Shown: positions 5,269-59,001 of the stretch, one piece after another
How positions within the stretch are numbered: the stretch's first letter is position 1
Layout: every line of letters begins with the position of its first letter
DNA from: Acidobacteriota bacterium
Lineage (GTDB): Bacteria; Acidobacteriota; Thermoanaerobaculia; Multivoradales; Multivoraceae
DNA length: 64,000 nucleotides
Reading direction: 5' to 3'
Assembly (NCBI GenBank): GCA_011523565.1
Contig: WTGL01000159.1
Location: forward strand, 2,101 to 66,100
The notes under the pieces: model-generated
Database searches by the model: none
What the model saw: the letters and a program-made list of their open reading frames with translations, nothing else
What the model was told of the DNA's origin: nothing
Translations under genes and position numbers: made by a program

Positions 5269-7947
5269 ATGACGCCGATGCTCCGGCACTACCTGACGGT
5301 GAAGGCGGAGCATCCCGACGCCATCCTTCTGTACCGGATGGGCGATTTCTTCGAGATGTTCTTCGAGGACGCCGTTACCGCGGCGCCGGTGCTCGATGTG
5401 GCGCTGACGGCCCGCCAGAAGGGCACGGCCAGCGAAGCGCCGATGTGCGGCGTGCCCCACCACGCGGTCGACGCCTACATCGGCAGGCTGCTCGACGCGG
5501 GCTTCAAGGTCGCGGTGTGCGACCAGGTCGAGGATCCGGCACAGGCCCGGGGCCTTGTACGCCGGGAGGTCACGCGGGTGGTGACGCCGGGGACGATCAG
5601 CGACCTCGAAATGCTGGACCAGGCCCGTCCGAACTACCTGGCCGGGATTCGTTTCGACGGGGCGTCCGGCGCAGGGGCGTTTCTCGATCTCTCGACCGGC
5701 GAGTTCTTCGTGCGGCGGTGGCCGAACGTGGAGGAGGCGGTCGAGGATCTGGAGAGGCTGGCGCCGCGGGAAGTTCTCACCTGCGCCGCCGATCTCGCGG
5801 CCGGCGCGGGTGACCCCGACGGACATCTGGCGGCCTGGATCGGCCGCGCCGGCACACCGCACACCGAAATCGAGGAGGACCAGGCTCCGAGACCGGCCGC
5901 GGCGGGGCGCGTCCTGCGGCGGCAGTTCGGAGTCCGGAACCTGCGGGGATTCGGTCTTGCCGAGGGGGAGGCGGCGGTCGCGGCGGCCGCCCTGGTGGTG
6001 GACTACGCGCGTGGCGCGGCGCGCTCCGACATCGACCACGTCGTTGCGCTGGAGGTCCAGCACGATGATCGCCGCGTGGTTCTGGACGAGACGACCCTTC
6101 GCAACCTGGAGGTCTTTCGCCATCTCCAGCACGAGGGGGGCAAGACCCTGATGGAGGTACTCGACCTGACGCTCACCGGACCGGGGACGCGCATGCTGCG
6201 ACGCTGGTTGAGCCGGCCCCTGCGTGACCTGGAGGTGCTCGGCGACCGCCACGACGGGGTGGCGGTGCTGGTCTCCGAGATCGGCCGGCGCGAGACGCTC
6301 CGGTCGCGGTTGATGAGCATTGCCGATCTGGAGCGGTTGACCTCGCGGGCGGTACTGGGACGGATCACGCCGCGGGAGGTCGGGGCGCTGCGGGACACCC
6401 TGCGCGAGGCGCCGTCCGTGCAGGGGGTTCTCGAGGGCCTGCGGGGGGAGCTTCTTGCCCGTCTCGCCGCGGTGGAGCCGCTGGGCGGGCTCCGGTCGAG
6501 GTTGGACTCCGTGCTGGCGGAAAGGCCCGGATCCCTGACCGAAGGCGGCGTGATCGCCGCTGGCGTCGACTCCGAACTCGACCGGCTCCGTTCGCTGGCG
6601 CGGGACGGCAAGGGGCACGTTGCCGCCCTTGAGGCGCGGGAGCGCGAAGCGACCGGTATCCCGACCCTGAAGGTCGGTTACAACCGGGTGTTCGGGTACT
6701 ACTTCGAGGTGCGGAAGACACAGCAGGACCGGGTTCCCGACCACTACGTGCGGCGGCAGACGTTGACCCATGCCGAGCGCTATGTCACCGACGAACTGAA
6801 GACGCTGGAACAGCAGATTCTCGGCGCCGAGAGCGGTCAGCTCGCGCTGGAACAGGAGTTGTTCGAGGGGCTGCGCCTGGAAATTGCGGACCAGGCCCCG
6901 CGGCTCCTGGAACTTGCCGCCGCGCTGGCGGAAATCGATTGCCTGGCCGCTCTGGCGGAGGTTGCCGCCCGGTACGACTACGTGCGACCGAGCATGATGC
7001 CGTCGGGAGGCCGTATCGAGATCCGCGATGGGCGGCACCCGGTGGTCGAGCGGTCGGCGGCGGCGGTGCGAGGCGCCTCGGGCTTCGTTCCCAACGACGT
7101 GGCGCTGGACCGCGAGACCGATCGGATCGTCCTGCTCACGGGTCCCAACATGGGCGGCAAGTCGACCTATCTGCGGCAGGTGGCGCTGATCGTGCTGATG
7201 GCTCATGCCGGCAGCTTCGTGCCCGCTCAGAGTGCCGAGATCGGCCTGGTGGACCGCATCTTCACCCGCGTCGGCGCCAGCGACGACCTGGCCCGGGGCG
7301 AGTCCACCTTCATGGTGGAGATGGTCGAGACCGCGAACATCCTCCGCCACGCGACGCGCGACAGCCTGGTCGTGCTCGACGAGGTCGGCCGCGGTACCTC
7401 GACGTACGACGGCCTGTCGCTGGCCTGGGCGATCGTCGAACGCCTGCACGAGCGGAACGGCTGTCTGGCTCTCTTCGCGACCCACTACCACGAACTGACC
7501 GGTCTGCCCGCGACGCTTTCCCGGGTGGCGAATCGACGCATGGCGGTCAAGGAGTGGCAGGACCAGATCCTGTTCCTGCACCGGGTGGCCGCGGGCCGCG
7601 CGGACAAGTCCTACGGCCTGCACGTCGCCCGGCTGGCCGGAGTGCCCAGGGAGGTGATCGAACGCGCGGCCGCGGTGCTCGAGAACATCGAGTCCCAGCA
7701 GTACAGCTTCTCAGGCAAGCCGAAGGTCGCCCTGGGGGCTGCCGGCGGACCGCCGGGCCCGGGAGCCGATCAGCTTTCCCTGTGGGCCGGCGAGGACGAG
7801 GCGGTGGTCGAAGCGCTTCGAGGCGTCGACGTGGACCAGTTGACGCCTGTAGCCGCGCTGAATCTGGTGCAGACCCTCCAGGACCGGCTCAGGTCGGGGC
7901 CGAAGCCGCCGGAGACCTCGGGGTCCGGCCGGGGCGAGAACTCCTAG
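5269..7947 (+). CDS. mutS: DNA mismatch repair protein MutS
   Basis: N-terminal MTPMLRHYLTVKAEHPDAILLYRMGDFFEMF and Walker A GPNMGGKST. Start set at the ATG at 5269 rather than the upstream ORF start. Confidence 0.95.
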   Translation: MTPMLRHYLTVKAEHPDAILLYRMGDFFEMFFEDAVTAAPVLDVALTARQKGTASEAPMCGVPHHAVDAYIGRLLDAGFKVAVCDQVEDPAQARGLVRREVTRVVTPGTISDLEMLDQARPNYLAGIRFDGASGAGAFLDLSTGEFFVRRWPNVEEAVEDLERLAPREVLTCAADLAAGAGDPDGHLAAWIGRAGTPHTEIEEDQAPRPAAAGRVLRRQFGVRNLRGFGLAEGEAAVAAAALVVDYARGAARSDIDHVVALEVQHDDRRVVLDETTLRNLEVFRHLQHEGGKTLMEVLDLTLTGPGTRMLRRWLSRPLRDLEVLGDRHDGVAVLVSEIGRRETLRSRLMSIADLERLTSRAVLGRITPREVGALRDTLREAPSVQGVLEGLRGELLARLAAVEPLGGLRSRLDSVLAERPGSLTEGGVIAAGVDSELDRLRSLARDGKGHVAALEAREREATGIPTLKVGYNRVFGYYFEVRKTQQDRVPDHYVRRQTLTHAERYVTDELKTLEQQILGAESGQLALEQELFEGLRLEIADQAPRLLELAAALAEIDCLAALAEVAARYDYVRPSMMPSGGRIEIRDGRHPVVERSAAAVRGASGFVPNDVALDRETDRIVLLTGPNMGGKSTYLRQVALIVLMAHAGSFVPAQSAEIGLVDRIFTRVGASDDLARGESTFMVEMVETANILRHATRDSLVVLDEVGRGTSTYDGLSLAWAIVERLHERNGCLALFATHYHELTGLPATLSRVANRRMAVKEWQDQILFLHRVAAGRADKSYGLHVARLAGVPREVIERAAAVLENIESQQYSFSGKPKVALGAAGGPPGPGADQLSLWAGEDEAVVEALRGVDVDQLTPVAALNLVQTLQDRLRSGPKPPETSGSGRGENS

Positions 7948-14472: not shown

Positions 14473-15141
14473 GTGAGCGAACCGACCGTCACCGTCCGGC
14501 TGCGTGAGCAGACCGGAAAGAACGCGAACCGCCGCCTGCGCGCGGCGGGTGAGATCCCGGCCGTCGTGTACGGCGGCGAGGGGGATTCGGCGGCCATCCG
14601 GGTCGACGGCAAGAGCGTGCAGACGCTGATTCGGGAAGGCGGGGAGAACGCCGTCTTCCTGCTCCAACTGGAGGGCACGGATCGCACGCGACACACGATG
14701 ATCCGCGATCTGCAATGGAACCCCCTGACCGGGTCCCTGGTCCACATCGACTTCCTGCGCGTGAAGATGGACCAGGAAGTGCAGGTCTCGGTGCCGATCG
14801 CACTGGTCGGAAGCCCCGAGGGAGTCAGGAACGAAGGTGGCCTGCTGGAGTTCATCACCCGCGAGGTGGGAGTCGTCTGCCTGCCCGGCGACATTCCGGT
14901 TTCGATCGAACTCGATGTCGAGCCGCTGCACATCGGCCAGCACGTGGAAGCCGGCGAACTCGTTCTTCCCTCGGCGGTGCGGCTGGAGGAGGACGAGAGC
15001 CGCGTGATCGTGTCGGTGGCCGCGAAGAAGGTCATCGAAGAGGAGGAAGAAGTCCCCGAGGAGGACGAACTGCTGGAGGCCGTCGCCGAGGAGCCCGAGA
15101 TGGTGGGCGCGAAGACGGAATCGGAGGACGAAGACGACTAG
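14473..15141 (+). CDS. rplY: 50S ribosomal protein L25 / general stress protein Ctc
   Basis: L25/Ctc family with an acidic C-terminal extension. Confidence 0.9.
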   Translation: MSEPTVTVRLREQTGKNANRRLRAAGEIPAVVYGGEGDSAAIRVDGKSVQTLIREGGENAVFLLQLEGTDRTRHTMIRDLQWNPLTGSLVHIDFLRVKMDQEVQVSVPIALVGSPEGVRNEGGLLEFITREVGVVCLPGDIPVSIELDVEPLHIGQHVEAGELVLPSAVRLEEDESRVIVSVAAKKVIEEEEEVPEEDELLEAVAEEPEMVGAKTESEDEDD

Positions 15142-15172
15142 GGGCGCCGGTGGCGCCGACGAGCCGTCGCGA

Positions 15173-15745
15173 CTGGTCCTCGGTCTGGGCAATCCGGGCG
15201 AGCGGTACTCCGACACGCGCCACAACCTCGGCTTTCGCGTGGTCGAGGAACTGGCCAGGCGACTGGACGTCCGTCTAGGCCTGAAGGTCTGCGGAGCACT
15301 CTGGAGCGCGGCGAGCCCCGTCGATCTGGCGACCCCTCAGACCTACATGAACCGCAGCGGCTACAGTGCGCGCTGTCTCAGTGAACGAAATGGCTATGCT
15401 CCGGAGAACATCCTGGTCGTCTACGACGAAGTCCATCTGCCCCTGGGAAGGCTGCGTCTTCGCGGCAGGGGCAGTCCGGGCGGCCACCGGGGAATGGAAT
15501 CGATCATCGAGAACCTGCGCACCACTGCGGTGCCCCGGCTCAGGCTGGGCATCGCGGCGGAGGGAGCAGAACAAACAGATGGAAGTGCGGGCGGCAGGAA
15601 GGGAGAACTCACGGACTTCGTGCTCGCTCCCTTCGCCGGCGGGGAAGTCGAAACGGCGGCGCGCATGGTGTGCCGGGCGGCCGACTGCGTCCTGAGCTGG
15701 GTCGACCGCGGTGTCGACATCACCATGAACGAGTACAACGGATGA
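15173..15745 (+). CDS. pth: peptidyl-tRNA hydrolase (apparent CTG start or -1 frameshift)
   Basis: The [21 protein letters not shown] catalytic N-terminus is encoded in frame, but there is no ATG/GTG/TTG between the in-frame stop at 15005 and the GTG at 15239. CTG at 15173 sits at the expected start. Confidence 0.7.
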
Positions 15746-23265: not shown

Positions 23266-25305
23266 TTGCACCGGCGCCTCGAGCCGGGGAACGGAGCCGG
23301 AGGACGCTTCGAGCTGATCTCCCCGTTCCGGCCCCAGGGTGATCAACCGGCGGCGATCGCCGAACTGGTGGCCGGTCTCGAGGACGACGTTCCCGAGCAG
23401 GTGCTGCTCGGGGTCACGGGTTCCGGCAAGACCTACACGATCGCCAAGGTGATCGAGGCGGTGAACCGGCCAACGCTGGTCCTGTCCCACAACAAGACGC
23501 TGGCGGCGCAGCTCTACCAGGAGTTCAAGAGCTTCTTTCCGAACAACGCGGTGGAGTACTTCGTCTCCTACTACGACTACTACCAGCCCGAGGCCTACGT
23601 CCCGCAGTCCGATACGTACATCGAGAAGGAAACGAGCATCAACGACGAGATCGACCGTCTGAGGCTGCGGGCGACGATCTCCCTGTTTGAACGGCGGGAC
23701 GTACTGGTCGTGGCCTCGGTGTCGTGCATCTACGGCCTGGGCGCGCCGGACGTCTTCTTCTCCATGCTCGAGTTCTTCGAGCGCGGGGCCGAGTTGCCGC
23801 TCGAGCGCGCACAGCGAAGCCTGGCAGAGATGCAGTACGAGCGCACCCGGCTCGATCTGTTCCACGGCAGTTTCCGCGTACGCGGAGACGTGCTCGAGAT
23901 CCTCCCGGCCTATGACGACCGGGGTATCCGGGTCGAGTACTTCGGAGACGAGATCGACCGGGTGTGCCGCTTCGACGTGATCACGGGACGCGTACTGGAG
24001 GAAATCGACCGGCTGCCGGTCTTTCCGCGCAACCACTACGTGACGCCGGAGGAACGGATGCGGAGGGCCACCCAGTCGATCGAGGAGGAACTGGGCGAGC
24101 ACCTCGTCGTCCTCGAGCGCGAGAACCGCCTGCTCGAGATGCAGCGCCTGGAGCAGCGGACCCGCTACGACCTGGAGATGCTGCGGGAGCTCGGCTCCTG
24201 CGCCGGCATCGAGAACTACTCGCGCCACCTCTCCGGCCGGGCACCGGGCGAGGCTCCGCCCACGTTCCTGGACTACCTGCCCGAGGACTTCCTCTTGGTG
24301 GTCGACGAGAGCCACCAGTCGATTCCGCAGGTGCATGGGATGTACCACGGCGACCGCGCGCGCAAGGAGACGCTGGTGGAGTTCGGATTCCGCCTGCCCA
24401 GTGCCCTCGACAACCGGCCGCTCCGGTTCGACGAGTTCGAGGAGCGTTGCGGCCAGAGGATCTACGTTTCGGCCACGCCGGGTCCCTTCGAACTGGAACG
24501 AACCGCCGGCGTGGTCGTCGAGCAGGTCATCAGGCCGACCGGCCTGCTCGATCCCCGGATCGAGCTCCGACCCTCCGCGAACCAGATCGACGACCTGGTG
24601 GAAGAGGCGAGGGCGGCGATCGAGCGCCGCGAGCGGGTGCTGGTGACCACGCTGACCAAGCGGATGGCCGAGGAGCTGACCCAGTACCTGACCGAGCTGG
24701 GCCTGAGGGTCCGCTACCTCCACAGCGACATCGACACCCTGGAGCGGGTCGAGATCACGACCGCGCTGCGGCGGGGCGAGTTCGACATTCTGGTCGGCAT
24801 CAACCTCCTGCGGGAGGGACTCGACCTCCCCGAAGTTTCGGTCGTCGCGATTCTGGACGCCGACAAGGAAGGGTTCCTGCGCAGCGAGGTGTCGCTCATC
24901 CAGACCGCGGGCCGCGCGGCGCGCAACCTGAACGGGCGGGTCATCTTCTACGCCGACCAGCGCACCGAGTCGATCGACCGCTCGGTCCGGGAGACCGCGC
25001 GGCGACGGCGTCTGCAGGCGCGCTACAACCGGGAGCACGGGATCGAGCCGGCCTCCATCCTGAAGGACGTGCACAGCCCGCTGGTGCAGATGAGCAACCT
25101 GGACTATCTGCACAAGGCCGGTGCGGCGGCCGAGAAGGCGGTGGAGGACCTCCTGCGCGAGGACGCGCCGGAAATGCCCCTGGAACGCCGCATCGCGCGC
25201 CTGGAGAAGGCGATGAAGCAGGCCTCCCGGCGGCTCGAGTTCGAGCAGGCCGCGGTGCTGCGTGACCGCCTGAAGGAACTCCGGGAAGTCAAGGTGATGG
25301 GCTGA
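23266..25305 (+). CDS. uvrB: excinuclease ABC subunit B
   Basis: [22 protein letters not shown] and full UvrB helicase motifs. Confidence 0.95.
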
Positions 25306-27107
25306 TGCACGCGCGCCTCGTTCGTCGGCTCGGCGAGCTTCCGGATCAGCCGGGGATCTACATCTTCAAGTCGGAGGACGGCGCGGCGCTCTACGTCGGC
25401 AAGGCGAAGTCCCTGCGCCGGCGCGCGGCAGCCTACCGCAAGCCGGCGGAGGATCCGCGCATCGCCCTGATGCTGCAGGACGCGGCCGATCTCGAGTTCG
25501 TGGTCACCGACTCGGAGGCCGAGGCGCTGCTGCTCGAGAACAACTGGATCAAGCGCCGGCAGCCGCGCTTCAACATCCGTCTGCGCGACGACAAGACCTA
25601 CCCGTACCTCAAGCTCACGCTTGCCGACGGCCACCCGCGTCTGGCCTTTACGCGGCGCATTCGCCGCGACGGCGCCGAGTACTACGGCCCGTACCTGCCC
25701 GCCGGACTGGCGCGCAAGGCGATCAAGCTGACGCAGAAGCTGTTCGGCATCCGGGTATGCCGCATCGAGATCGACGGCAGCCTGCCGCGGCCCTGCCTCT
25801 ACTACGACATGAAGCGCTGTCTCGGTCCCTGCGTCGACGGCCTGACGACCGACGAGGCCTATGCGGAGGCGGTGGAGAAGGCGCGCCTCTTTCTCGCCGG
25901 CAGGAACGACGAGTTGCTGCGCGGCCTGCGCGACAGCATGCGGACGCACGCCGCCGGTCTGGAGTTCGAAACCGCGGCCCGTCTTCGGGACACGATGCGG
26001 GAGATCGAACAGGTCACTCAGCGGCGGAAACTGTTCTCGGATCGGGGCGAGGATGTCGACATTTTCGGTGTCCATACCAGCGGCGACAACGCCGCGGTCG
26101 TCGTGCTGGTCATGCGCGGCGGTCAGGTCCTCGATCGTCGCGAGCTGTTCTGGGAGGGGGTCTCGAGGATCACCGCCGAACGTCTGCTGTCGGAACTGCT
26201 GCCGCAGCTCTACGACCGGACCACCCTGATTCCGAAGGAGATCCACCTGCCGGCGCCGATCGAGGGTGAAGGGGCGCTTACCTCGTGGCTGAGCGAGCGG
26301 CGCGAATCGAGGGTGTACCTCCGCATGCCCTCGCGCGGACCGAAGGCGCAGCGGGTGGCCCTCGCCAACCGGAACGCGGCGATGGCCTTCCGCCGCCGGT
26401 TCCGGGGTGCGGGCGCCGCCGGAGAGGCCGGCGAGGCGCTGCGGCGGGCGCTCGACCTCGAAGACCCCCCGCGCCGGATCGAGGGTCTCGACATCTCGAC
26501 CTTCGGCGGCAGCCAGACGGTCGCCTCGCTCGTGGTCTGGAATGACGGCCGGATGGTCAAGAAGGAGTACCGGAGCTTCAACATCCGGGGCCTGGAGCAG
26601 GCCGACGATTTCGCCTCGATTCGCCAGGCGGTGGAGCGGCGCTACCGGAGGACCCTCGAGGAGGTCGGCGAGATGCCCGACCTGATCCTGATCGACGGCG
26701 GACGGGGCCAGTTGAACGCGGCGCTGGAGGCGCTGTCGGAACTCGGCGTCGACGAGACACCGGTGGTGGGCCTCGCGAAGCGCGAGGAGGAGGTCTACGT
26801 CCCGGCGCGGCCGGCGCCGCTCAGGCTGCGGCGGAATCACGCCGGCCTCCGCGTGCTCCAGCAGGTGCGTGACGAGGCGCACCGCTTCGCCGTGTCGCGC
26901 CACCGCCGTCGCCGTTCCCGGCGAACGCTGCGCAGCCGGTTCGACGACCTCCGGGGGATCGGGCCGAAGCGGCGCAAGTTGCTGGTGCGCCGCTTCGGCA
27001 GCTACGCGGGTGTCACCCGGGCGTCGGAGGAGCAGCTCCAGGAGGTCCTGGGCGCGAAGCTCGCCCGATCGGTCTATGCCTCGGTCCATCGAGATCGGAC
27101 CGGTTGA
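25305..27107 (+). CDS. uvrC: excinuclease ABC subunit C
   Basis: GIY-YIG motif (GIYIFKSEDGAALYVGKA) and UvrC RNase H/HhH domains. ATGA overlap with uvrB. Confidence 0.95.
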   Translation: MHARLVRRLGELPDQPGIYIFKSEDGAALYVGKAKSLRRRAAAYRKPAEDPRIALMLQDAADLEFVVTDSEAEALLLENNWIKRRQPRFNIRLRDDKTYPYLKLTLADGHPRLAFTRRIRRDGAEYYGPYLPAGLARKAIKLTQKLFGIRVCRIEIDGSLPRPCLYYDMKRCLGPCVDGLTTDEAYAEAVEKARLFLAGRNDELLRGLRDSMRTHAAGLEFETAARLRDTMREIEQVTQRRKLFSDRGEDVDIFGVHTSGDNAAVVVLVMRGGQVLDRRELFWEGVSRITAERLLSELLPQLYDRTTLIPKEIHLPAPIEGEGALTSWLSERRESRVYLRMPSRGPKAQRVALANRNAAMAFRRRFRGAGAAGEAGEALRRALDLEDPPRRIEGLDISTFGGSQTVASLVVWNDGRMVKKEYRSFNIRGLEQADDFASIRQAVERRYRRTLEEVGEMPDLILIDGGRGQLNAALEALSELGVDETPVVGLAKREEEVYVPARPAPLRLRRNHAGLRVLQQVRDEAHRFAVSRHRRRRSRRTLRSRFDDLRGIGPKRRKLLVRRFGSYAGVTRASEEQLQEVLGAKLARSVYASVHRDRTG

Positions 27108-27545: not shown

Positions 27546-28468
27546 TGACCTTCTTCGACAGGCCGTTCGGATGGCCGCCGTCCGTCGGGCCGGGCGACCG
27601 GATCGGCATCGCGGCACTGTCCGGACCGATCGACGACGACCGTCTCCGGGCCGGCGTGGCTGCGCTTGGAGACCTTGGGTTCGAGGTCGTGCTCGCCTCC
27701 AACCTGCGTCCCGGGGCGAAACGGGAAGGACGCGGTCTGTTCGTGGGATCGGACCGCCAGCGGCTACAGGCGTTCCACGACCTGGCGGCGGACGAGGAGG
27801 TCGCCGCGATCGTCTTCGCCCGTGGCGGCTATGGCGTGACGCGGCTCCTGGAACGCATCGACTGGCGTCTGCTCGCGGGCAGGCCGCGGCCCTACGTGGG
27901 TTACTCGGACGTGACGCCGTTCCTGCTCGCCCTGGTCGCCAGAACCCGGATGGCGGCCTTCCATGGCCCGATGCTGGTCGACTTCGCCCGCGGCCTGCTG
28001 GCTGAGGAGCGTTGCTCCCTGCTCGCCGCACTGGCCGGCCGCCGAGGCGAGACCTGGCAACTCGAGCGCATCGGCGGGGCAACGTCGGCCGGCCGACCGG
28101 AAGCGATCGAGGGTCATCTTCTCGGCGGTTGCCTGACCATGCTGGCGGCGACGATCGGAACGGGTTTCCTGCCGGACTTCCGCGGCTCGATCCTGTTTCT
28201 CGAGGACATCGATGAGCCCGAGTACCGGATCGACCGCCTGCTGACGCAGCTTCGGTCCGCCCGACGTGTCGGTGGCGTGCGTGCGGTGGTCGCAGGTCAT
28301 TTCACGAACTGTGACGCGCGCGACGGCTTGGTCGACTTCGCCGAAGGACTCGGGGTGCCGTTGCTGGTCGGTCTTCCGGCGGGTCACGAGGCGCCTAACC
28401 ACACGCTGCCGCTGGGGGCCTCGGTCCGGCTCGATCCGGACGCCGGCACGCTGGAAGTCACGGACTGA
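27545..28468 (+). CDS. ldcA: LD-carboxypeptidase (peptidase S66, muramoyltetrapeptide carboxypeptidase)
   Basis: S66 family. TTG start at 27545 lies inside the rnpB 3' stem. Confidence 0.75.
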   Translation: MTFFDRPFGWPPSVGPGDRIGIAALSGPIDDDRLRAGVAALGDLGFEVVLASNLRPGAKREGRGLFVGSDRQRLQAFHDLAADEEVAAIVFARGGYGVTRLLERIDWRLLAGRPRPYVGYSDVTPFLLALVARTRMAAFHGPMLVDFARGLLAEERCSLLAALAGRRGETWQLERIGGATSAGRPEAIEGHLLGGCLTMLAATIGTGFLPDFRGSILFLEDIDEPEYRIDRLLTQLRSARRVGGVRAVVAGHFTNCDARDGLVDFAEGLGVPLLVGLPAGHEAPNHTLPLGASVRLDPDAGTLEVTD

Positions 28469-28476
28469 CTCCGCCG

Positions 28477-30612
28477 ATGGAGCCGTTCGACCCGATCACA
28501 AGTGCGCGCGGTGTGGGCCCGGTGCTGGGCCGCAAGCTGGCCGAGGCGGGTTGCCGCCGCATCGCCGACCTGCTGGCGCACCTTCCCATCCGGTACGAGG
28601 ACCGGCGCGAACTCGGGCGCCTGCCCGGGCCGGGCGGCAATGCGTCCGAAGGCGCGCCGGGGCCGTTGACCGTGGTCGTGCGCCTGGAGAAGCTGCGGCG
28701 GGTGTTCGGCCGGCGCCGGTTCTCGCGTGTGGAGGCGGTCGCCGACGACGGTGAGAACAGGGTCGGCGTCGTCTGGTTCAATCGGCCCTATCTCGCGAAC
28801 CAATTGGACGAGGACGCTTCCTACCTCCTTCACGGAGTGCCCAGACGCCGGGGCCGGGACGGCGTCTGGCAACTCGCGAATCCGACCGTCGAACGGGTGG
28901 AGGAGGAGCCGGCCGGTGGGGGCGGCGTACGACCGGTGTACGGCCGCATCGGAGACGTGCCGCCGTCGCGGGTGGAGCGCCTTGTCCACGGAGCCGTGTC
29001 CCGCCTGACGAAAACCCGCGGCTCTGACTGGATCGACGAGTGGTTGCCGGACGAAGAGCGTGCCCGGCACGGCCTGCCAAGACTGGCCGAGGCACTGATG
29101 GCGGTCCACCGCCCCTCCGCCGAGGCCTCGGTCGAAGCACTGAACGAGAGACGGAGTCCGGCCCATGCACGCCTCGCCTACGGGGAATTCCTGCTCCAGC
29201 AGTTGCAGCTCGCCGCCGCTCGCAGGGGGCGCAGCCGGCACGGGAAACCGCACCGGTACCGGACCTCCGACGCGGCGGCGAGAGTGGCTCGGGAACTACT
29301 GCCGTTCCGGTTGACCGGTGCCCAGGAACGGGTGCTCGAGGAAATCGAAACCGACCTCTTCGGGCAGCGGCCCATGCTCCGCCTGGTGCAGGGCGATGTC
29401 GGCTGCGGCAAGACGGTCCTTGCCGCCCTGGCCTGCCTGATCGCGGCTCGGAGCGGCCTCCAGTCGGCCCTGATGGCGCCCACGGAGCTACTCGCCGAGC
29501 AGCACTTCGCCTCCCTGCAGCGGCTGTTGGGGTCGCACCTCGACCTTGCGCTTGTGACCTCCAGCCAGCGCGTCGCCAGCGACGGGGGCGGCGCGGTGCG
29601 CGAACGGGTCGGCAACGGCCGCATCGACCTCACGGTCGGCACCCACGCATTGATCCAGGAGCGCACCAGCTTCGCGCGCCTGGGACTCGCCGTCGTCGAC
29701 GAGCAGCACCGGTTCGGTGTTGTCCAGCGCCAGTCCCTGGCTCAGAAAGGGCAGCGTCCGGACCTCCTGGTCATGACCGCGACGCCGATTCCCAGGTCTC
29801 TGGCGCTGACCGTGTACGGTGACCTGGACGTGTCCTTGGTGGACGAGATGCCGCCGGGCCGCGGCCCGGTCGAGACCCGCGTGCTGACCGAGAAGCACCG
29901 GGACGAGGCGGTGTCCCTCGTCCGGCAGTGCATTCGCCGCGGTGGCAGGGCCTACGTCGTCTTCCCCCTGATCGATCCCGGCGAAGGAAGCGCGGCCGGG
30001 CTGCCGTCGCTGGAGGAGTCGGGCGCCTGGTGGGCCGAGGCGCTCGCAGCGCCCCATGGCGTGGTCCACGGTCGTCTGGGCCGCGAGGAGCGCGATGCGA
30101 CGATGAGCCGCTTCTCGGCCGGCTCGATCCGGGTGCTGCTTGCGACGACCGTGATCGAGGTGGGCGTCGACGTGCCGGAGGCGACCGCGATGGTGATCCT
30201 CGGTGCGGAGCGGTTCGGACTGGCCCAACTGCACCAGCTTAGGGGCCGCATCGGACGGGGCACGGATCCGACGCTCGGGCAGTCGATCTGCATCGCCATT
30301 TCGGGCCGCTCGTCTGCCGAAGCCGAGCGTCGGCTGGCGGTGTTCGCAGCATCGAACGACGGCTTCCGGATCGCGGAGGAGGATCTGCGGCAGCGCGGAC
30401 CCGGCGAGGTGCTCGGCACGCGCCAGGCCGGATTGCCGCAGTTCCGCTTCGGCGACCTGGCCCGGGACTGGAAGTGGCTCGTGGCGGCGCGGGCCGACGC
30501 CGCAAGGCTTCTCGACCGGCTCGCGGAGCCCGGCAATGAGCCGCTACGGCGGCAGTTGGAGCGCCGGATTCCGGCGCTTGCCACTCCGGCGCAGGGGACC
30601 GCTGAGCCGTGA
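28477..30612 (+). CDS. recG: ATP-dependent DNA helicase RecG
   Basis: Wedge domain, helicase motifs GDVGCGKT and DEQHRFG. Confidence 0.95.
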   Translation: MEPFDPITSARGVGPVLGRKLAEAGCRRIADLLAHLPIRYEDRRELGRLPGPGGNASEGAPGPLTVVVRLEKLRRVFGRRRFSRVEAVADDGENRVGVVWFNRPYLANQLDEDASYLLHGVPRRRGRDGVWQLANPTVERVEEEPAGGGGVRPVYGRIGDVPPSRVERLVHGAVSRLTKTRGSDWIDEWLPDEERARHGLPRLAEALMAVHRPSAEASVEALNERRSPAHARLAYGEFLLQQLQLAAARRGRSRHGKPHRYRTSDAAARVARELLPFRLTGAQERVLEEIETDLFGQRPMLRLVQGDVGCGKTVLAALACLIAARSGLQSALMAPTELLAEQHFASLQRLLGSHLDLALVTSSQRVASDGGGAVRERVGNGRIDLTVGTHALIQERTSFARLGLAVVDEQHRFGVVQRQSLAQKGQRPDLLVMTATPIPRSLALTVYGDLDVSLVDEMPPGRGPVETRVLTEKHRDEAVSLVRQCIRRGGRAYVVFPLIDPGEGSAAGLPSLEESGAWWAEALAAPHGVVHGRLGREERDATMSRFSAGSIRVLLATTVIEVGVDVPEATAMVILGAERFGLAQLHQLRGRIGRGTDPTLGQSICIAISGRSSAEAERRLAVFAASNDGFRIAEEDLRQRGPGEVLGTRQAGLPQFRFGDLARDWKWLVAARADAARLLDRLAEPGNEPLRRQLERRIPALATPAQGTAEP

Positions 30613-46163: not shown

Positions 46164-46241
46164 GAGTGCATTCTAGGACTCAGCGCCCGGAATCTGCACG
46201 AGAGGGTCGATTTCGGGCGGTGAATCCTGGGGAGATGAGTC

Positions 46242-48551
46242 CTAGGGAGGAGTGCGGCCTCTGTCGCTGGGGGGCGGCGCCGACGGCGACGAGGATCTGG
46301 GCGGAGGGGAGTAGCTGGAAGGCCTCGAGGGCGGTGTGTAGCTGCGGGACGGCGGCGACGAGCGTGGCGACGAAGCGCGTGGCGTCGACCGCGTCCGGGT
46401 GGGGGGCGTGGAGCGTGTGCGCGTGGGTGTCGACCTCGGCGTGGAAGCCCTCGGTGGCGTGGAGCGCGTGCGAGTGGGCGTCGACTTCGGCGTGGACGCC
46501 CTCGGTGGCGTGGAGCGTGTGCGCGTGGGTGTCGACCTCGGCGTGGACGCCCTCGGTGGCGTGGAGCGCGTGCGAGTGGGCGTCGACTTCGGCGTGGAAG
46601 CCCTCGGTGGCGTGGAGCGCGTGCGAGTGGGCGTCGATCTCGGCGTGGAAGCCCTCGGCGGGGTCGAGCGGGTCCGGGTGGGTGTCGACTTGGGCGCGGA
46701 TGTCCGTGTCGGCACGGAACGGGTTCGGCTAGGTGTTGCCGTTCGCGGCGCGTTGACTCGTTCGGGCCGTCTCGATGGAGGATTCGCCGTGCGAGGGGCC
46801 GCCGGCACCGCGTCCCGGCCGCGGATCGCGTCGAGCACGCGGCGGGCGGGCGTCGGTCTCCGGGTGCGGTCGAGCACGTTTCCGCTCGCCCTCGGAGCCG
46901 CCACACGAGCCGGCGCCTTGTCGTCTGCGCCCTCGGAGTCTCGGGCGGTCGTCGTTGACGTTGGGGCCGCCGTCAGACCTCCGGAACTGACGCGTACGGC
47001 CTTCGGGGCTTCGGTTCGCCGAGCGTCGTCGAGGGACCTCCGCCGAAGCGTGACGCCCGTACCGGACTCCGTACCGGCGCCCGCTGTCGGCGAGTTGGAG
47101 CGCGTCCGGACGCCGCCGGCCGTTACGCCAACCAGACCGGATCGGCCGGCTACGGGGGGACCGCCCACGACTCGCACCGTCCCTTGCTGGTCGGGTGTTC
47201 GCGTCAGCTTGGCCTTGAGAGTCTCGTTCAGGTCCGTCCTTCGCGCGACGAAATCCGTGACATCGGGGAGTTCGCTTTCGGAAAGGCCGCGGCGCTTGCC
47301 GAGGAGGACCTGCTGTACCGCCTCGGGATTCCGCCAGTTTCGGTAGTCGATGCCGTTCGTGTCCGTCGTGATGATGCCGCGTGCGAGCTTCGGATGACGC
47401 TGGCGCAGGGAGCGGCCGTAGGTGTAACCGCGGCCGTAGCCCAGGTAGCCTGACGGGCAGAAGATCCAGGTGTTGAAGGGATCCCAGAAGCCCCCTGCCC
47501 ATCCGTAGAGTCCCCAACGGAGGCCGAAGCCCCGGCCGAGGTAGTAGCGGTGGTAGTAGCCGCGGGGGATCCACCCCACATACGACGGCCCCCAGTACCA
47601 GTACACGTGGCTCGGAGCGTAGATGGAGCTTGGGAACCAGAGCCAACCGTAGCCGGGATACAGGTTCCAGCTGCCGTAGTGATAGGTGAGGGGACCCCAG
47701 GGGTCGCGCGCGACCCAGTACAGTCCGGCGGGGGTATGCGTCCAGCGGCCTCGACTGTAGGGCTGCCAATCGTCCTCAACCGCGGGCTTCCAGGCCCGGC
47801 CATCCTCAACCTCCACCCATTGGCCGTGGTCGGTCAGGCTGGACCCGTAGCCGTCGACATCGACGGCGGCGTATGCCGCAAGCCGGGTGCGGTGAGCCCC
47901 TACCCATTCATCCAGGGCCAGAGCGGCGGCGCCGGCGCCGCTCTGAAGTTCGATCCACGGGTCGTCCAGACCTTGCACCAGAAGGGCTTCGCCATCGCGG
48001 ACGATCACCGAACCGCGCTGGGTGACGACCTCCGCGAAGCCGTCCAGCACAGCGATTTCCGCCCAGCGGTCGCCGTCGCTTTCGACCTGGTAGCGGCCGC
48101 CCTGTTTGGCGTAGACCCGGGCGTTCGTCGTGTCGATTGCCGGCAGCTCCCAGTCCAGCAGGTTGTTCGGGACCTCGAGGCTCAACCGGCCCCGGTGCAG
48201 GACGTAGAGGGAGTCCATGTCGTCCGCGTCCGGTGAGCCGGCGATCTGGGCGAGAGTGACCTCGCTGTCGTGGTCGAGAGCGAGAATCGAGCGGTCCGAC
48301 ATCAGCACGGCCAGCCGGCCGTACGGATTGGTCCAGATTCGGTCTCCGCGCAGGACCGGAAGGTGAATCTCCAAGTCGCTCTGCGCTCCGGAACGTGCCG
48401 CGAACAGGGTCGCGTCTCCGTCCAACGCACCGACGAGGCTGTAGACGCCCTCGAGTTGTCCTTGTTCCTGGGGTGCCGTCTGAGCGTGGGTGGCGGTCGC
48501 CACCCCTGCCGCGAGGACGATCAGTAGGGCTTGCGGGAGGGTACGTCTCAT
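46242..48551 (-). CDS. secreted FecR-domain protein with aromatic-rich central region and R/S/T/P-rich tandem-repeat C-terminus
   Basis: Signal peptide MRRTLPQALLIVLAAGVATATHAQ. FecR-like segment. G/Y/W-rich stretch. About 6 copies of a 17-aa repeat TPTRTRSTPPRASTP[RK]S. Confidence 0.65.
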   Translation of the reverse strand: MRRTLPQALLIVLAAGVATATHAQTAPQEQGQLEGVYSLVGALDGDATLFAARSGAQSDLEIHLPVLRGDRIWTNPYGRLAVLMSDRSILALDHDSEVTLAQIAGSPDADDMDSLYVLHRGRLSLEVPNNLLDWELPAIDTTNARVYAKQGGRYQVESDGDRWAEIAVLDGFAEVVTQRGSVIVRDGEALLVQGLDDPWIELQSGAGAAALALDEWVGAHRTRLAAYAAVDVDGYGSSLTDHGQWVEVEDGRAWKPAVEDDWQPYSRGRWTHTPAGLYWVARDPWGPLTYHYGSWNLYPGYGWLWFPSSIYAPSHVYWYWGPSYVGWIPRGYYHRYYLGRGFGLRWGLYGWAGGFWDPFNTWIFCPSGYLGYGRGYTYGRSLRQRHPKLARGIITTDTNGIDYRNWRNPEAVQQVLLGKRRGLSESELPDVTDFVARRTDLNETLKAKLTRTPDQQGTVRVVGGPPVAGRSGLVGVTAGGVRTRSNSPTAGAGTESGTGVTLRRRSLDDARRTEAPKAVRVSSGGLTAAPTSTTTARDSEGADDKAPARVAAPRASGNVLDRTRRPTPARRVLDAIRGRDAVPAAPRTANPPSRRPERVNAPRTATPSRTRSVPTRTSAPKSTPTRTRSTPPRASTPRSTPTRTRSTPPRASTPKSTPTRTRSTPPRASTPRSTPTRTRSTPPRASTPKSTPTRTRSTPPRASTPRSTPTRTRSTPPTRTRSTPRASSPRSSPPSRSYTPPSRPSSYSPPPRSSSPSAPPPSDRGRTPP
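46405..46700. repeat. 51-nt tandem repeat (~5.7 copies) inside the FecR-domain gene
   Basis: Unit GGCGTGGAGCGYGTGCGMGTGGGYGTCGACYTCGGCGTGGAMGCCCTCGGT is visible directly in the sequence. It also produces spurious plus-strand ORFs. Confidence 0.8.
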
Positions 48552-56494: not shown

Positions 56495-57856
56495 GTGCGC
56501 GGCCCGGTCGAGGAAACCCACAGCCTGCCGCACAGCGAGGAGTCGGAGCGCGCTGTGCTGGCCGCGATCCTGCTCGATGCCGACCGACACCTGGCGGCCA
56601 CCGCGACCCGCCTGAAGGCCGACGACTACTACTTCGAAAGGCATCGTCTTCTGTATGAGGCGATGCTCGCGCTCCAGGAGTCGGACAGCCCGATCGACCT
56701 GCGGACCGTTCAGGCGCGGCTGGAACAGCGGGACCAGTTCGAAGCCGCCGGCGGCGTCGCGTATCTGGCCACGCTGGAGGTGGACCTGCCGGACCTCGGC
56801 CGTGTCGACTCCTACGTCGAGATCATCAAGGAACGGGCCCTGCGCAGGCGACTGATCGACGCCTGTACAACGATCTACCGGACGGCGCTCGACGGCGGGC
56901 TCGAGGCGAAGGACGCCCTTGGCCGCGCGGAGCAGGCGGTGATGGAACTGAGCGAGGAGGCGGTAACGCGCACCTTCGCGCCATTCGACCAGGTGGTCCG
57001 CGAGACGGTGGAGAGGCTCGAACAGCGCTCGTCGAACGACTTCCCCGGGTTGCGTACGGGATTCGTCGATTTCGACCGGATGACACACGGTCTCCAGCCG
57101 GGCAACCTGATCATCATCGCCGGCCGGCCGGGGATGGGAAAGACGAGCCTGGCCCTCAACATCGCCACCCACGTTGCGCATGAGGAAGGGAAGGCGGCCG
57201 GCTTCTTCTCGCTCGAGATGAACGAGCAGGAGATCGCCATGCGGGTGCTGTGCTCAACGACCGACATTCCCTTCCACCGGTTGCGCGGCGGTCGGCTCGG
57301 GGCGCGCGACTGGAGCCGTCTGCACGAGGCCGTGGAGGCCGGCCGGGACTCGAGTCTGTTCATCGACGATTCCGCCAATCCGTCGCTCCTCGAGGTCGCC
57401 TCCAAGGCGCGCAGGCTGAAGGCCCAGCAAGGCCTCGCACTCGTGGTCGTGGACTACCTCCAGTTGATGAACGCCGGGGGCAGGTACGAGAACCGCAACC
57501 TGGAGATCGGAGCGATCACGCGCGGCCTGAAACAACTGGCCAAGGAACTCGATGTGCCGGTCGTGGCGCTCTCCCAGCTCTCGCGGCTTCCAGAGCGCCG
57601 CGGCAAGGACCACCGTCCCCAGCTCGCGGATCTCCGGGAGTCGGGCAACATCGAGCAGGACGCCGACATCGTCGTCTTCGTCTACCGGGAAGAGATGTAC
57701 GAGCGGGACGACCCCGACGTGCGGGGCATGGCGCAGTTGATCATCGCCAAGCACCGGAACGGGGAAACGGGGAGCGTGGATCTGGTCTTCATCGGCGACA
57801 CGACGACGTTTCGCAACTACGACAGCCAGCACACGCCGCCCGAGGGACCACCCTGA
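56495..57856 (+). CDS. dnaB: replicative DNA helicase
   Basis: DnaB N-terminal domain plus RecA-like domain (GRPGMGKTS). GTG start. Confidence 0.95.
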   Translation: MRGPVEETHSLPHSEESERAVLAAILLDADRHLAATATRLKADDYYFERHRLLYEAMLALQESDSPIDLRTVQARLEQRDQFEAAGGVAYLATLEVDLPDLGRVDSYVEIIKERALRRRLIDACTTIYRTALDGGLEAKDALGRAEQAVMELSEEAVTRTFAPFDQVVRETVERLEQRSSNDFPGLRTGFVDFDRMTHGLQPGNLIIIAGRPGMGKTSLALNIATHVAHEEGKAAGFFSLEMNEQEIAMRVLCSTTDIPFHRLRGGRLGARDWSRLHEAVEAGRDSSLFIDDSANPSLLEVASKARRLKAQQGLALVVVDYLQLMNAGGRYENRNLEIGAITRGLKQLAKELDVPVVALSQLSRLPERRGKDHRPQLADLRESGNIEQDADIVVFVYREEMYERDDPDVRGMAQLIIAKHRNGETGSVDLVFIGDTTTFRNYDSQHTPPEGPP

Positions 57857-59001
57857 CCCCGGACGCTCGCGCCCGGGTCGAAATCGATCTCGGCACTCTG
57901 GCCGGCAATCTGCGACTGGTTCGGCGGGCGGTCGGCGGGACCGGTGTGTTCGGTGTGGTCAAGGCGGACGCCTACGGTCACGGAGCCGTGTCCGTGAGCC
58001 TCGAATTGGAGCGGTTGGGCATCGACGGGTTCGCCGTGGCTCGCGTGAATGAGGTCGGGGAACTGCGGCAGTCAGGGGTACGCGGCCGGCTGCTGCTCCT
58101 GGGTGGACCAGCGTCGATCGAGGAGCTCGCGTGCGCCGTCGAGTGGAACGCAACGCCCGTGCTCACGCGCCGGCAGCAGATCGCCGACTGGTCGGCCTGG
58201 CGACGGCGGGCCTCCGGCAGCCGCACCCCTCTCGGCGTCGTGGTCGAGCTGGACACCGGCATGAGGCGCTACGGCGTACCGCTCGACGAGTGGCCGCCCT
58301 TGCTCCGGGAACTCCGGTCGGCGCCGGAACTGCGACTGACCGGCCTGATGTCCCATCTGGCGGAATCCGAGCTGCCGGAAAGCGGCTTCACGGCGCTCCA
58401 GGAGGAGCGGTTTGCCGAGGCAGTCGGAGCCTTGGGACCGGAAGAGCGCGGGGCCGTGTCCCTTCATCTCGCGAACTCGTCCGGCGCGCTCAGACGGGCC
58501 TCCGCGCGCTGGAGCGCGGTTCGTGTGGGCGGGGCACTCTACGGCCTCGATCTGGCCGCTGCCGCCGACCCCTCGCCGGGATCCGGGTTGCGCCCGGTGA
58601 TGCGTGTCATAGCGCCCATCCTCGATCTTCGGCAGGTTCCGATCGGGACCGGTGTCGGCTACCGGCGAACCTGGAAGGCAGCGCGTGACGCGACGATCGC
58701 CCTGCTGCCTGTCGGCTACGGCGACGGATTCAGCACCGCCTACGGCATCGGCGACGTGCTCGTGGGGGGCATCCGCTGCCCGATCGCGGGTCAGGTCAGC
58801 ATGGACTCGCTGACCGTCGACGTCACCGGCGTTTCCGGCGTCAAGTTGGGAGACGAGTGCGTTCTGCTCGGCTCGCAGGGGGACGAACGGATCGGGGTCA
58901 CCGAACTCTCCGCCCGCGCCGGCATCGCCGCCTACGAAGTCTGGTGCGGCTTCAGGAGTCGGCTGCCGCGGCGGATCCTGGACCCTGGCGTCAGCTCCTA
59001 G
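57853..59001 (+). CDS. alr: alanine racemase (apparent CTG start)
   Basis: N-terminal VEIDLGTLAGNLRLV and PLP-lysine motif VVKADAYGHG. No ATG/GTG/TTG for more than 45 codons upstream. CTG at 57853 overlaps the dnaB stop. Confidence 0.75.
   Translation: MTPDARARVEIDLGTLAGNLRLVRRAVGGTGVFGVVKADAYGHGAVSVSLELERLGIDGFAVARVNEVGELRQSGVRGRLLLLGGPASIEELACAVEWNATPVLTRRQQIADWSAWRRRASGSRTPLGVVVELDTGMRRYGVPLDEWPPLLRELRSAPELRLTGLMSHLAESELPESGFTALQEERFAEAVGALGPEERGAVSLHLANSSGALRRASARWSAVRVGGALYGLDLAAAADPSPGSGLRPVMRVIAPILDLRQVPIGTGVGYRRTWKAARDATIALLPVGYGDGFSTAYGIGDVLVGGIRCPIAGQVSMDSLTVDVTGVSGVKLGDECVLLGSQGDERIGVTELSARAGIAAYEVWCGFRSRLPRRILDPGVSS

Follow-up and report, generated by a model that had tools for sequence, protein, structure and literature searches.

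The dnaB-alr junction

The stretch of DNA analyzed here (hereafter the window) comprises 64,000 nucleotides of contig WTGL01000159.1 from an Acidobacteriota bacterium (assembly GCA_011523565.1, positions 2,101 to 66,100 of the forward strand), with a G+C content of ~68%. Within it, the replicative helicase gene dnaB is followed in the same direction by alr, which encodes alanine racemase, and the question considered here is how translation of alr begins: its reading frame offers no ATG, GTG or TTG where the conserved protein starts, and a CTG that overlaps the dnaB stop codon probably takes their place. The features of the locus are as follows.

56495-57856, plus strand: dnaB (replicative helicase) coding sequence, with a GTG start and a TGA stop at 57854-57856, identified from the list of open reading frames (ORFs) and Pfam
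57842-57846, plus strand: Shine-Dalgarno (SD)-like GAGGG inside the DnaB tail (codons GAG GGA of PPEGP), read from the sequence
57853-57855, plus strand: CTG proposed to initiate alr, in frame with it and overlapping the dnaB TGA as CTGA
57853-59001, plus strand: alr (alanine racemase) coding sequence as proposed, 382 amino acids plus a TGA stop
57856-57873, plus strand: variable N-terminal linker TPDARA, from the CTG to RVEIDL, differing in length among genomes
57874-57945, plus strand: conserved N-terminal segment RVEIDLGTLAGNLRLVRRAVGGTG, upstream of the first canonical start
57946-57948, plus strand: GTG chosen as start by automated gene callers, giving the 351-amino-acid product P0001; a second GTG lies at 57955
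57961-57963, plus strand: AAG codon of the lysine that binds pyridoxal phosphate (PLP), K37 counted from the CTG, in VVKADAYGHG, from the translation

The dnaB product contains the DnaB and DnaB_C domains (Pfam, E down to 1e-98), and the 3' end of its gene reads ...CCG CCC GAG GGA CCA CCC TGA, where CTGA at 57853-57856 forms a 4-nt stop/start overlap between the two co-directional genes. The original prediction held that the alr frame has no canonical start for more than 45 codons upstream, and the true situation is stronger than this. The frame is open from 57184 onward, and the canonical starts in it are confined to GTG 57250, inside dnaB and 201 codons ahead of the junction, and two GTGs close to the codon for the PLP lysine, 57946 (5 codons before it) and 57955 (2 codons before it). 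The other elements of that prediction are also borne out: the CTG at 57853 is in the alr frame and overlaps the dnaB TGA, the GAGG-type motif is present as GAGGG, separated from the CTG by a 6-nt spacer (ACCACC), and the conserved Alr N-terminus, expected about eight codons on, begins with RVEIDL at codon 8 after the CTG.

None of the three frames contains an ATG, GTG or TTG between ~57780 and 57945, so an insertion or deletion error could not supply a start. A single change of the C at 57853 to A, G or T would create a canonical start and would be silent in dnaB. The remaining true overlap junctions in the window use ATGA, GTGA or TGATG, and at alr the overlap triplet is CTG instead. SD-type motifs are found upstream of many other window genes; before GTG 57946 none was seen in the sequence.

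By its sequence, the gene encodes an ordinary alanine racemase (Alr/DadX, PLP fold type III), the unusual feature of which is its start. Both Pfam domains are present, the PLP-binding barrel domain Ala_racemase_N (PF01168) over residues 11-232 (profile positions 1-218 of 220, E = 6e-55) and the C-terminal beta domain Ala_racemase_C (PF00842) over residues 249-374 (E = 1e-36), and both K37 in VVKADAYGHG and Y270 in GVGYRRTW, which we take from homology to be the catalytic tyrosine, are invariant columns of alignment A1. Counted from the CTG, profile position 1 of Ala_racemase_N aligns to residue 11, and in alignments with alanine racemases in the PDB (E down to 3e-45) the match begins at query residues 2-9 and at residues 5-10 of the solved proteins. 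In an AlphaFold model based on a 20-sequence alignment, residues 8-11 form a strand and residues 13-27 a helix ahead of the Lys37 strand, with a predicted local distance difference test (pLDDT) score of ~80. Initiation at GTG 57946 or 57955 would drop 31-34 structured N-terminal residues and keep the PLP lysine. The original prediction had asked whether an Alr starting at the next internal ATG would lack this lysine; this is true of that ATG (58261, Met137), but the next canonical starts are the two GTGs, which retain it.

Because no canonical start is available for full-length Alr, automated callers clip the gene. They place its start at GTG 57946 in L001-L006, where product P0001 (351 amino acids) begins MFGVVKADAYGHG. 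Among the 62 closest Alr homologues (59-100% identity), 50 have a called N-terminus that lies no more than 19 residues before the lysine, or after it, so the lack of a start characterizes the clade, not one assembly. One NCBI record, P0002 (the L167 homologue, GCA_026707375.1), is already annotated from the same CTG. Public annotation of alr in this clade is inconsistent, with an ATC used in two records and the CTG in a third: NCBI P0028 (L170) starts alr at an ATC (2001-2003), giving 434 amino acids and an 85-nt overlap with dnaB, and NCBI P0041 (MDLGALAHNL...) matches L012 from the ATC-encoded isoleucine of EID.

Conservation of the junction across the clade

The closest relatives of the window are metagenome-assembled genomes of uncultured lineages, labelled Thermoanaerobaculia, Candidatus Multivorans or Acidobacteriota, and we compared the junction in 16 clade genomes (the window, L007-L013 and L167-L174). 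Of these, 13 have CTGA with its CTG in frame with alr, and 11 of the 13 lack any ATG, GTG or TTG from the CTG to RVEIDL. The last DnaB residue may be P, T, L, I, N or F (codons CCC, ACC, CTC, ATC, AAC and TTC, respectively), and the third base of its codon is C in all 15 junctions of the form NNC TGA. The 200 dnaB codons before this one contain 68 fourfold-degenerate columns in which the amino acid does not vary, and the third base varies in every one of them. At fourfold sites, the CTGA genomes are ~46-86% identical to the window, and the more distant members 46-59%.

These data bear directly on the possibility that the missing start is a sequencing or assembly error, or that it reflects the recent inactivation of an ATGA or GTGA junction, with alr a pseudogene in the making. 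It is true that one change of the C would restore a canonical start, silently in dnaB, but 20 contigs of independent assemblies (ENA and several Logan runs) encode an identical DnaB, and every one has the same junction. No corrected sequence with an upstream canonical start, which the original prediction had named as a potential refutation, is revealed by at least six independent assemblies that carry this junction. CTGA is moreover common to 13 genomes that have diverged at fourfold sites to the extent given above, and the alr ORF is intact and conserved, with its catalytic residues present. We regard this explanation as effectively refuted.

The distance from the CTG to the lysine is 33, 36, 37, 38 or 43 codons, and the frame is always kept; five such lengths imply at least four insertion or deletion (indel) events, every one of them a multiple of three. 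Over the 15 codons from RVEIDL, which precede every canonical start that the genomes share, pairwise synonymous and nonsynonymous codon differences number 422:454 when the alr frame is read, whereas the remaining two frames give 78:774 and 88:735; the following 15 codons, which are undisputedly coding, give 576:541. This pattern is difficult to reconcile with a start at the internal GTG 57946 (or 57955), which would leave the upstream stretch untranslated and produce a 351-amino-acid enzyme without its first 31-34 residues. Those GTGs are the first canonical starts, 57946 is the one that Prodigal-type callers picked, and the PLP lysine would be kept; nevertheless, the 15 upstream codons show coding-type substitution in the alr frame only, the frame from the CTG is preserved across indels, and the predicted strand and helix at residues 8-27 match solved structures. 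The place of the first internal canonical start also varies by genome, at 2, 5, 10, 14, 15 or 19 codons before the lysine, and 57946 has no SD-like motif upstream. Initiation at the internal GTG is thus very unlikely.

A start at some other non-canonical codon past the dnaB stop, such as ATC 57883 (the isoleucine of EID), appears very unlikely. ATC is a known weak near-cognate start (bioRxiv 10.1101/063800), and two NCBI records already begin at an ATC, P0041 (L012) at this very isoleucine and P0028 (L170) further upstream. However, the ATC of EID is replaced by GTC in L009 and L169, a start there would discard the conserved R-V-E, and the invariant C of CTGA and the in-frame upstream indels would be left unexplained. 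Among the clade genomes compared, the linker from the CTG to RVEIDL contains no further conserved near-cognate codon.

In the window, no stop interrupts the alr frame over the last 600 nt of dnaB, which would allow a DnaB-Alr fusion made by programmed frameshifting at the end of dnaB, or a start at the far-upstream GTG 57250. Seven relatives (L008, L009, L011, L012, L170, L172 and L173) instead have an in-frame stop upstream of the CTG and no canonical start from that stop to RVEIDL, and far-upstream starts are therefore excluded in these genomes; the stop lies 3, 13 and 19 codons before the CTG in L009, L011 and L012, respectively. There is no conserved slippery site or shared heptamer, and the last dnaB codons vary among genomes. 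A conserved RNA structure at the junction was considered and rejected, as RNAalifold gave 14 pairs with 0 compensatory changes, leaving 0 covarying pairs, and the single-sequence fold had z = -0.07. A helicase-racemase fusion is also without precedent or rationale, and we consider either version of this explanation highly improbable.

The three clade genomes in which the genes are not coupled in this way, L168, L169 and L171, have alr behind a 70-150-nt spacer or out of frame with the dnaB stop, and in each case alr has its own ATG or GTG directly before RVEID (spacer versus own canonical start, Fisher p = 0.018, not corrected for phylogeny). Only L168, with ATG TGA, has no C at the junction, and only L168 lacks the GAGG motif; GAG followed by G or A is kept in the other 15 of 16. 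Viewed together, the occurrence of CTGA in 13 of 16 genomes, the invariant C, the frame kept across indels, the coding-type substitution and the canonical starts of the uncoupled genomes support CUG initiation of alr as originally proposed. The last four of these, together with the lack of any further conserved near-cognate codon before RVEIDL, point to a functional CTG rather than one present by accident.

Two further features of these genomes may be recorded here. In L171 (1848-2003), dnaB still ends in CTGA although alr has its own ATG after a 150-nt spacer; the frame set by the CTG runs on for 50 codons to a stop that is two codons short of the alr ATG, resembling an upstream ORF, and it may be vestigial. 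The DnaB tail that carries the GAGG motif, H-(T/A)-P-P-E-G-P-x (window 57823-57856), extends beyond Pfam DnaB_C and is conserved in the clade, and the DnaB tails of outgroups, e.g., KEFTRFENMWKE, are unrelated to it.

As an outgroup control, we used a metagenome scan with the Alr alignment, the listed matches of which are distant alr genes of no more than 42% identity. Among these matches, 139 of 140 loci have a canonical start 26-80 codons before the lysine. Set against the 11 of 13 dnaB-coupled clade loci that have none, this difference is not due to chance. In two of the outgroups, L092 and L101, dnaB lies directly upstream of alr with a 4-nt overlap, and at this junction the overlap is GTGA. 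L110 (Ga0163153_10000014, ~2420-2600, ~39% identity) is the sole outgroup alr of the 140 without a canonical start before the SIDLDAL segment, and the only near-cognates after its upstream stop are in-frame ATC codons.

Probable CUG initiation and coupling to dnaB

The best explanation for these observations, and one that we consider likely, is that alr is translated from the CUG at 57853 with N-formylmethionine (fMet) initiation, probably fed by ribosomes that terminate on dnaB. Initiator fMet-tRNA presumably reads the CUG through a first-position mismatch, so that fMet would be the first residue, and a start at this codon would yield a 382-residue Alr with an N-terminus that matches the family. 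The predicted N-terminal peptide is (f)M-TPDARARVEIDLGTLAGNLR from the CUG, as against MFGVVK from the internal GTG.

In this mechanism CUGA would stand in place of AUGA or GUGA, forming a 4-nt overlap with the SD-like GAGGG of the DnaB tail at optimal spacing. This geometry, together with the position of the motif in the DnaB tail, makes ribosomes finishing dnaB the likely source of those that initiate on alr, by termination-reinitiation, in which case alr translation may depend on dnaB termination. We infer stop/start coupling of alr to dnaB from this arrangement, with which it agrees, given that GTGA occupies this junction in outgroups. The C is kept even though replacing it by A, G or T would leave DnaB unchanged or do it no harm, and would give a stronger start. 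Selection thus appears to act for the weak codon itself, probably because it keeps Alr scarce and linked to dnaB translation. A weak CUG would hold Alr output at a low level that follows dnaB translation, and low expression may be the selected trait.

Several points weigh against CUG initiation and must be set beside this evidence. Initiation factor 3 (IF3) discriminates against CUG. L010 and L013 carry an extra GTG between the CTG and RVEIDL, and the CTG may therefore be unused in those two genomes. The bias toward G and C at third codon positions (GC3), where C and G each make up ~45% of fourfold sites, could together with shared ancestry partly explain the conserved C, and because GAG GGN also encodes the conserved DnaB tail PPEGP, conservation of the motif is no proof of SD function. 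In E. coli, CUG is a very poor start, with ~1% of the activity of AUG, and it accounts for 0.024% of annotated bacterial starts (PMC11497404; bioRxiv 10.1101/063800).

CUG starts have been established in two E. coli genes, hda and yfjD, where they were found by sequence conservation and inspection of ribosome-binding sites and confirmed by start-codon mutagenesis (PMC3531124). As is proposed for alr, these are chromosomal genes with a CUG start in which canonical downstream codons were mis-annotated as the start, but theirs are experimentally verified, whereas the alr start is predicted here from sequence comparison. Hda is a low-abundance protein linked to replication. To our knowledge, neither hda nor yfjD has been described as overlapping an upstream stop as CUGA; the alr CUG differs from both in being conserved over a family- or order-level Acidobacteriota clade and in being set in a 4-nt stop/start overlap.

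Overlapping gene pairs of the ATGA type are tightly coupled in bacteria and archaea (PMC6728339, PMC10666635, PMC12548453). The AUGA and GUGA overlaps share with alr the co-directional arrangement of the genes, a start that has two bases in common with UGA, and an SD or, in the case of alr, SD-like sequence in the 3' end of the upstream gene. The overlaps described are ATGA and TGATG, however, and CUG, the proposed start of alr, is not among them. A third comparison is with infC, which has an AUU start close to an upstream stop, in the context UAA GGU AUU (PMC3592434). This too is a conserved and deliberately weak non-canonical start in a housekeeping gene near an upstream stop. The AUU of infC serves IF3 autoregulation, whereas the codon proposed for alr is a different one, and we know of no comparable feedback logic for Alr, nor is any evident. 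In the literature, we found no description of a CUGA overlap or of a CUG start for alr. A CUG start and a stop/start overlap are each known, and the novelty lies in an unusually well-conserved case that combines the two.

CUG is the one first-position variant of AUG that bacteria almost never use, and the reason for this is still under study (PMC11497404). The alr gene offers a natural CUG start in a housekeeping gene, apparently under purifying selection across a deep clade, that coincides precisely with a stop/start overlap. The gene would be suited to asking whether terminating or re-initiating ribosomes escape the discrimination against CUG, and whether weak starts are selected for low, coupled expression. 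There is also a practical consequence, as standard callers clip alr in ~80% of clade records (50 of 62) and clip pth, the gene considered below, in some records too. Given this systematic clipping, annotation pipelines and protein databases carry N-terminally clipped Alr for the lineage.

The pth gene and other candidates in the window

A second gene in the window for which CUG initiation was proposed is pth, which is separate from the alr locus.

15173-15175, plus strand: CTG, candidate pth start, with no canonical start in frame over 15008-15238

ATG, GTG and TTG are absent before the region of the catalytic histidine (window 15139-15240, plus strand), and position 1 of the Pfam Pept_tRNA_hydro profile aligns to CTG 15173, which lies 31 nt past the L25 stop. 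The CTG is conserved in L175, L177 and L179. L177 (88% identity) and L179 (84%) likewise lack a canonical start from the L25 stop to GLGNPG, and L175 has a GTG further upstream. Most pth homologues in the clade start at an ATG nine codons further upstream, and there the CTG is an ordinary leucine codon. The claim that pth is a second independent CUG case therefore stands in part: the missing start is real and common to two relatives, but the case is weaker than that of alr, with no stop/start overlap, no clear SD sequence and an ATG in most homologues. Loss of the pth start appears to be recent and confined to a subclade, which makes this gene the weaker second candidate.

A Pfam screen of 30 further stop-to-stop ORFs in the window found no domain that extends upstream of the first canonical start, and the genes that apparently need CUG number 2 of ~55 in the window, alr and pth, both cases being common to close relatives. 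Compared with the ~0.024% of annotated bacterial starts, 2 of ~55 genes is a hint, and not more than a hint, of relaxed start-codon selection. It would be in keeping with a Thermoanaerobaculia lineage in which start selection is relaxed or altered, through the anticodon stem of the initiator tRNA, IF3 or the P-site of 16S ribosomal RNA (rRNA), and in which CUG is a routinely usable fourth start, although we think such a lineage-wide change unlikely. The window contains no initiator tRNA, infC or 16S rRNA gene.

Further CTGA junctions, at 6148, 25302 and 28465, were rejected as candidates, since each either falls within an ORF or has an ATG 0-4 codons further on. At the uvrB/uvrC junction (window 25302-25307) the sequence is CTGATG, with the ATG immediate, and the CTGA junction of a RecG-family gene (window 28465-28479) has an ATG four codons later; both are ordinary junctions. 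A start-less ORF of 182 codons on the minus strand (46180-46728) was likewise rejected as a gene, since it is an alternative frame of a tandem-repeat region. The repeat has a unit of 51 nt, present in 5.8 copies with 88% matches (window 46405-46700), and lies in the C-terminal part of a 769-amino-acid FecR/DUF6600 protein (46242-48551, minus strand), the alternative-frame ORF having a high GC3.

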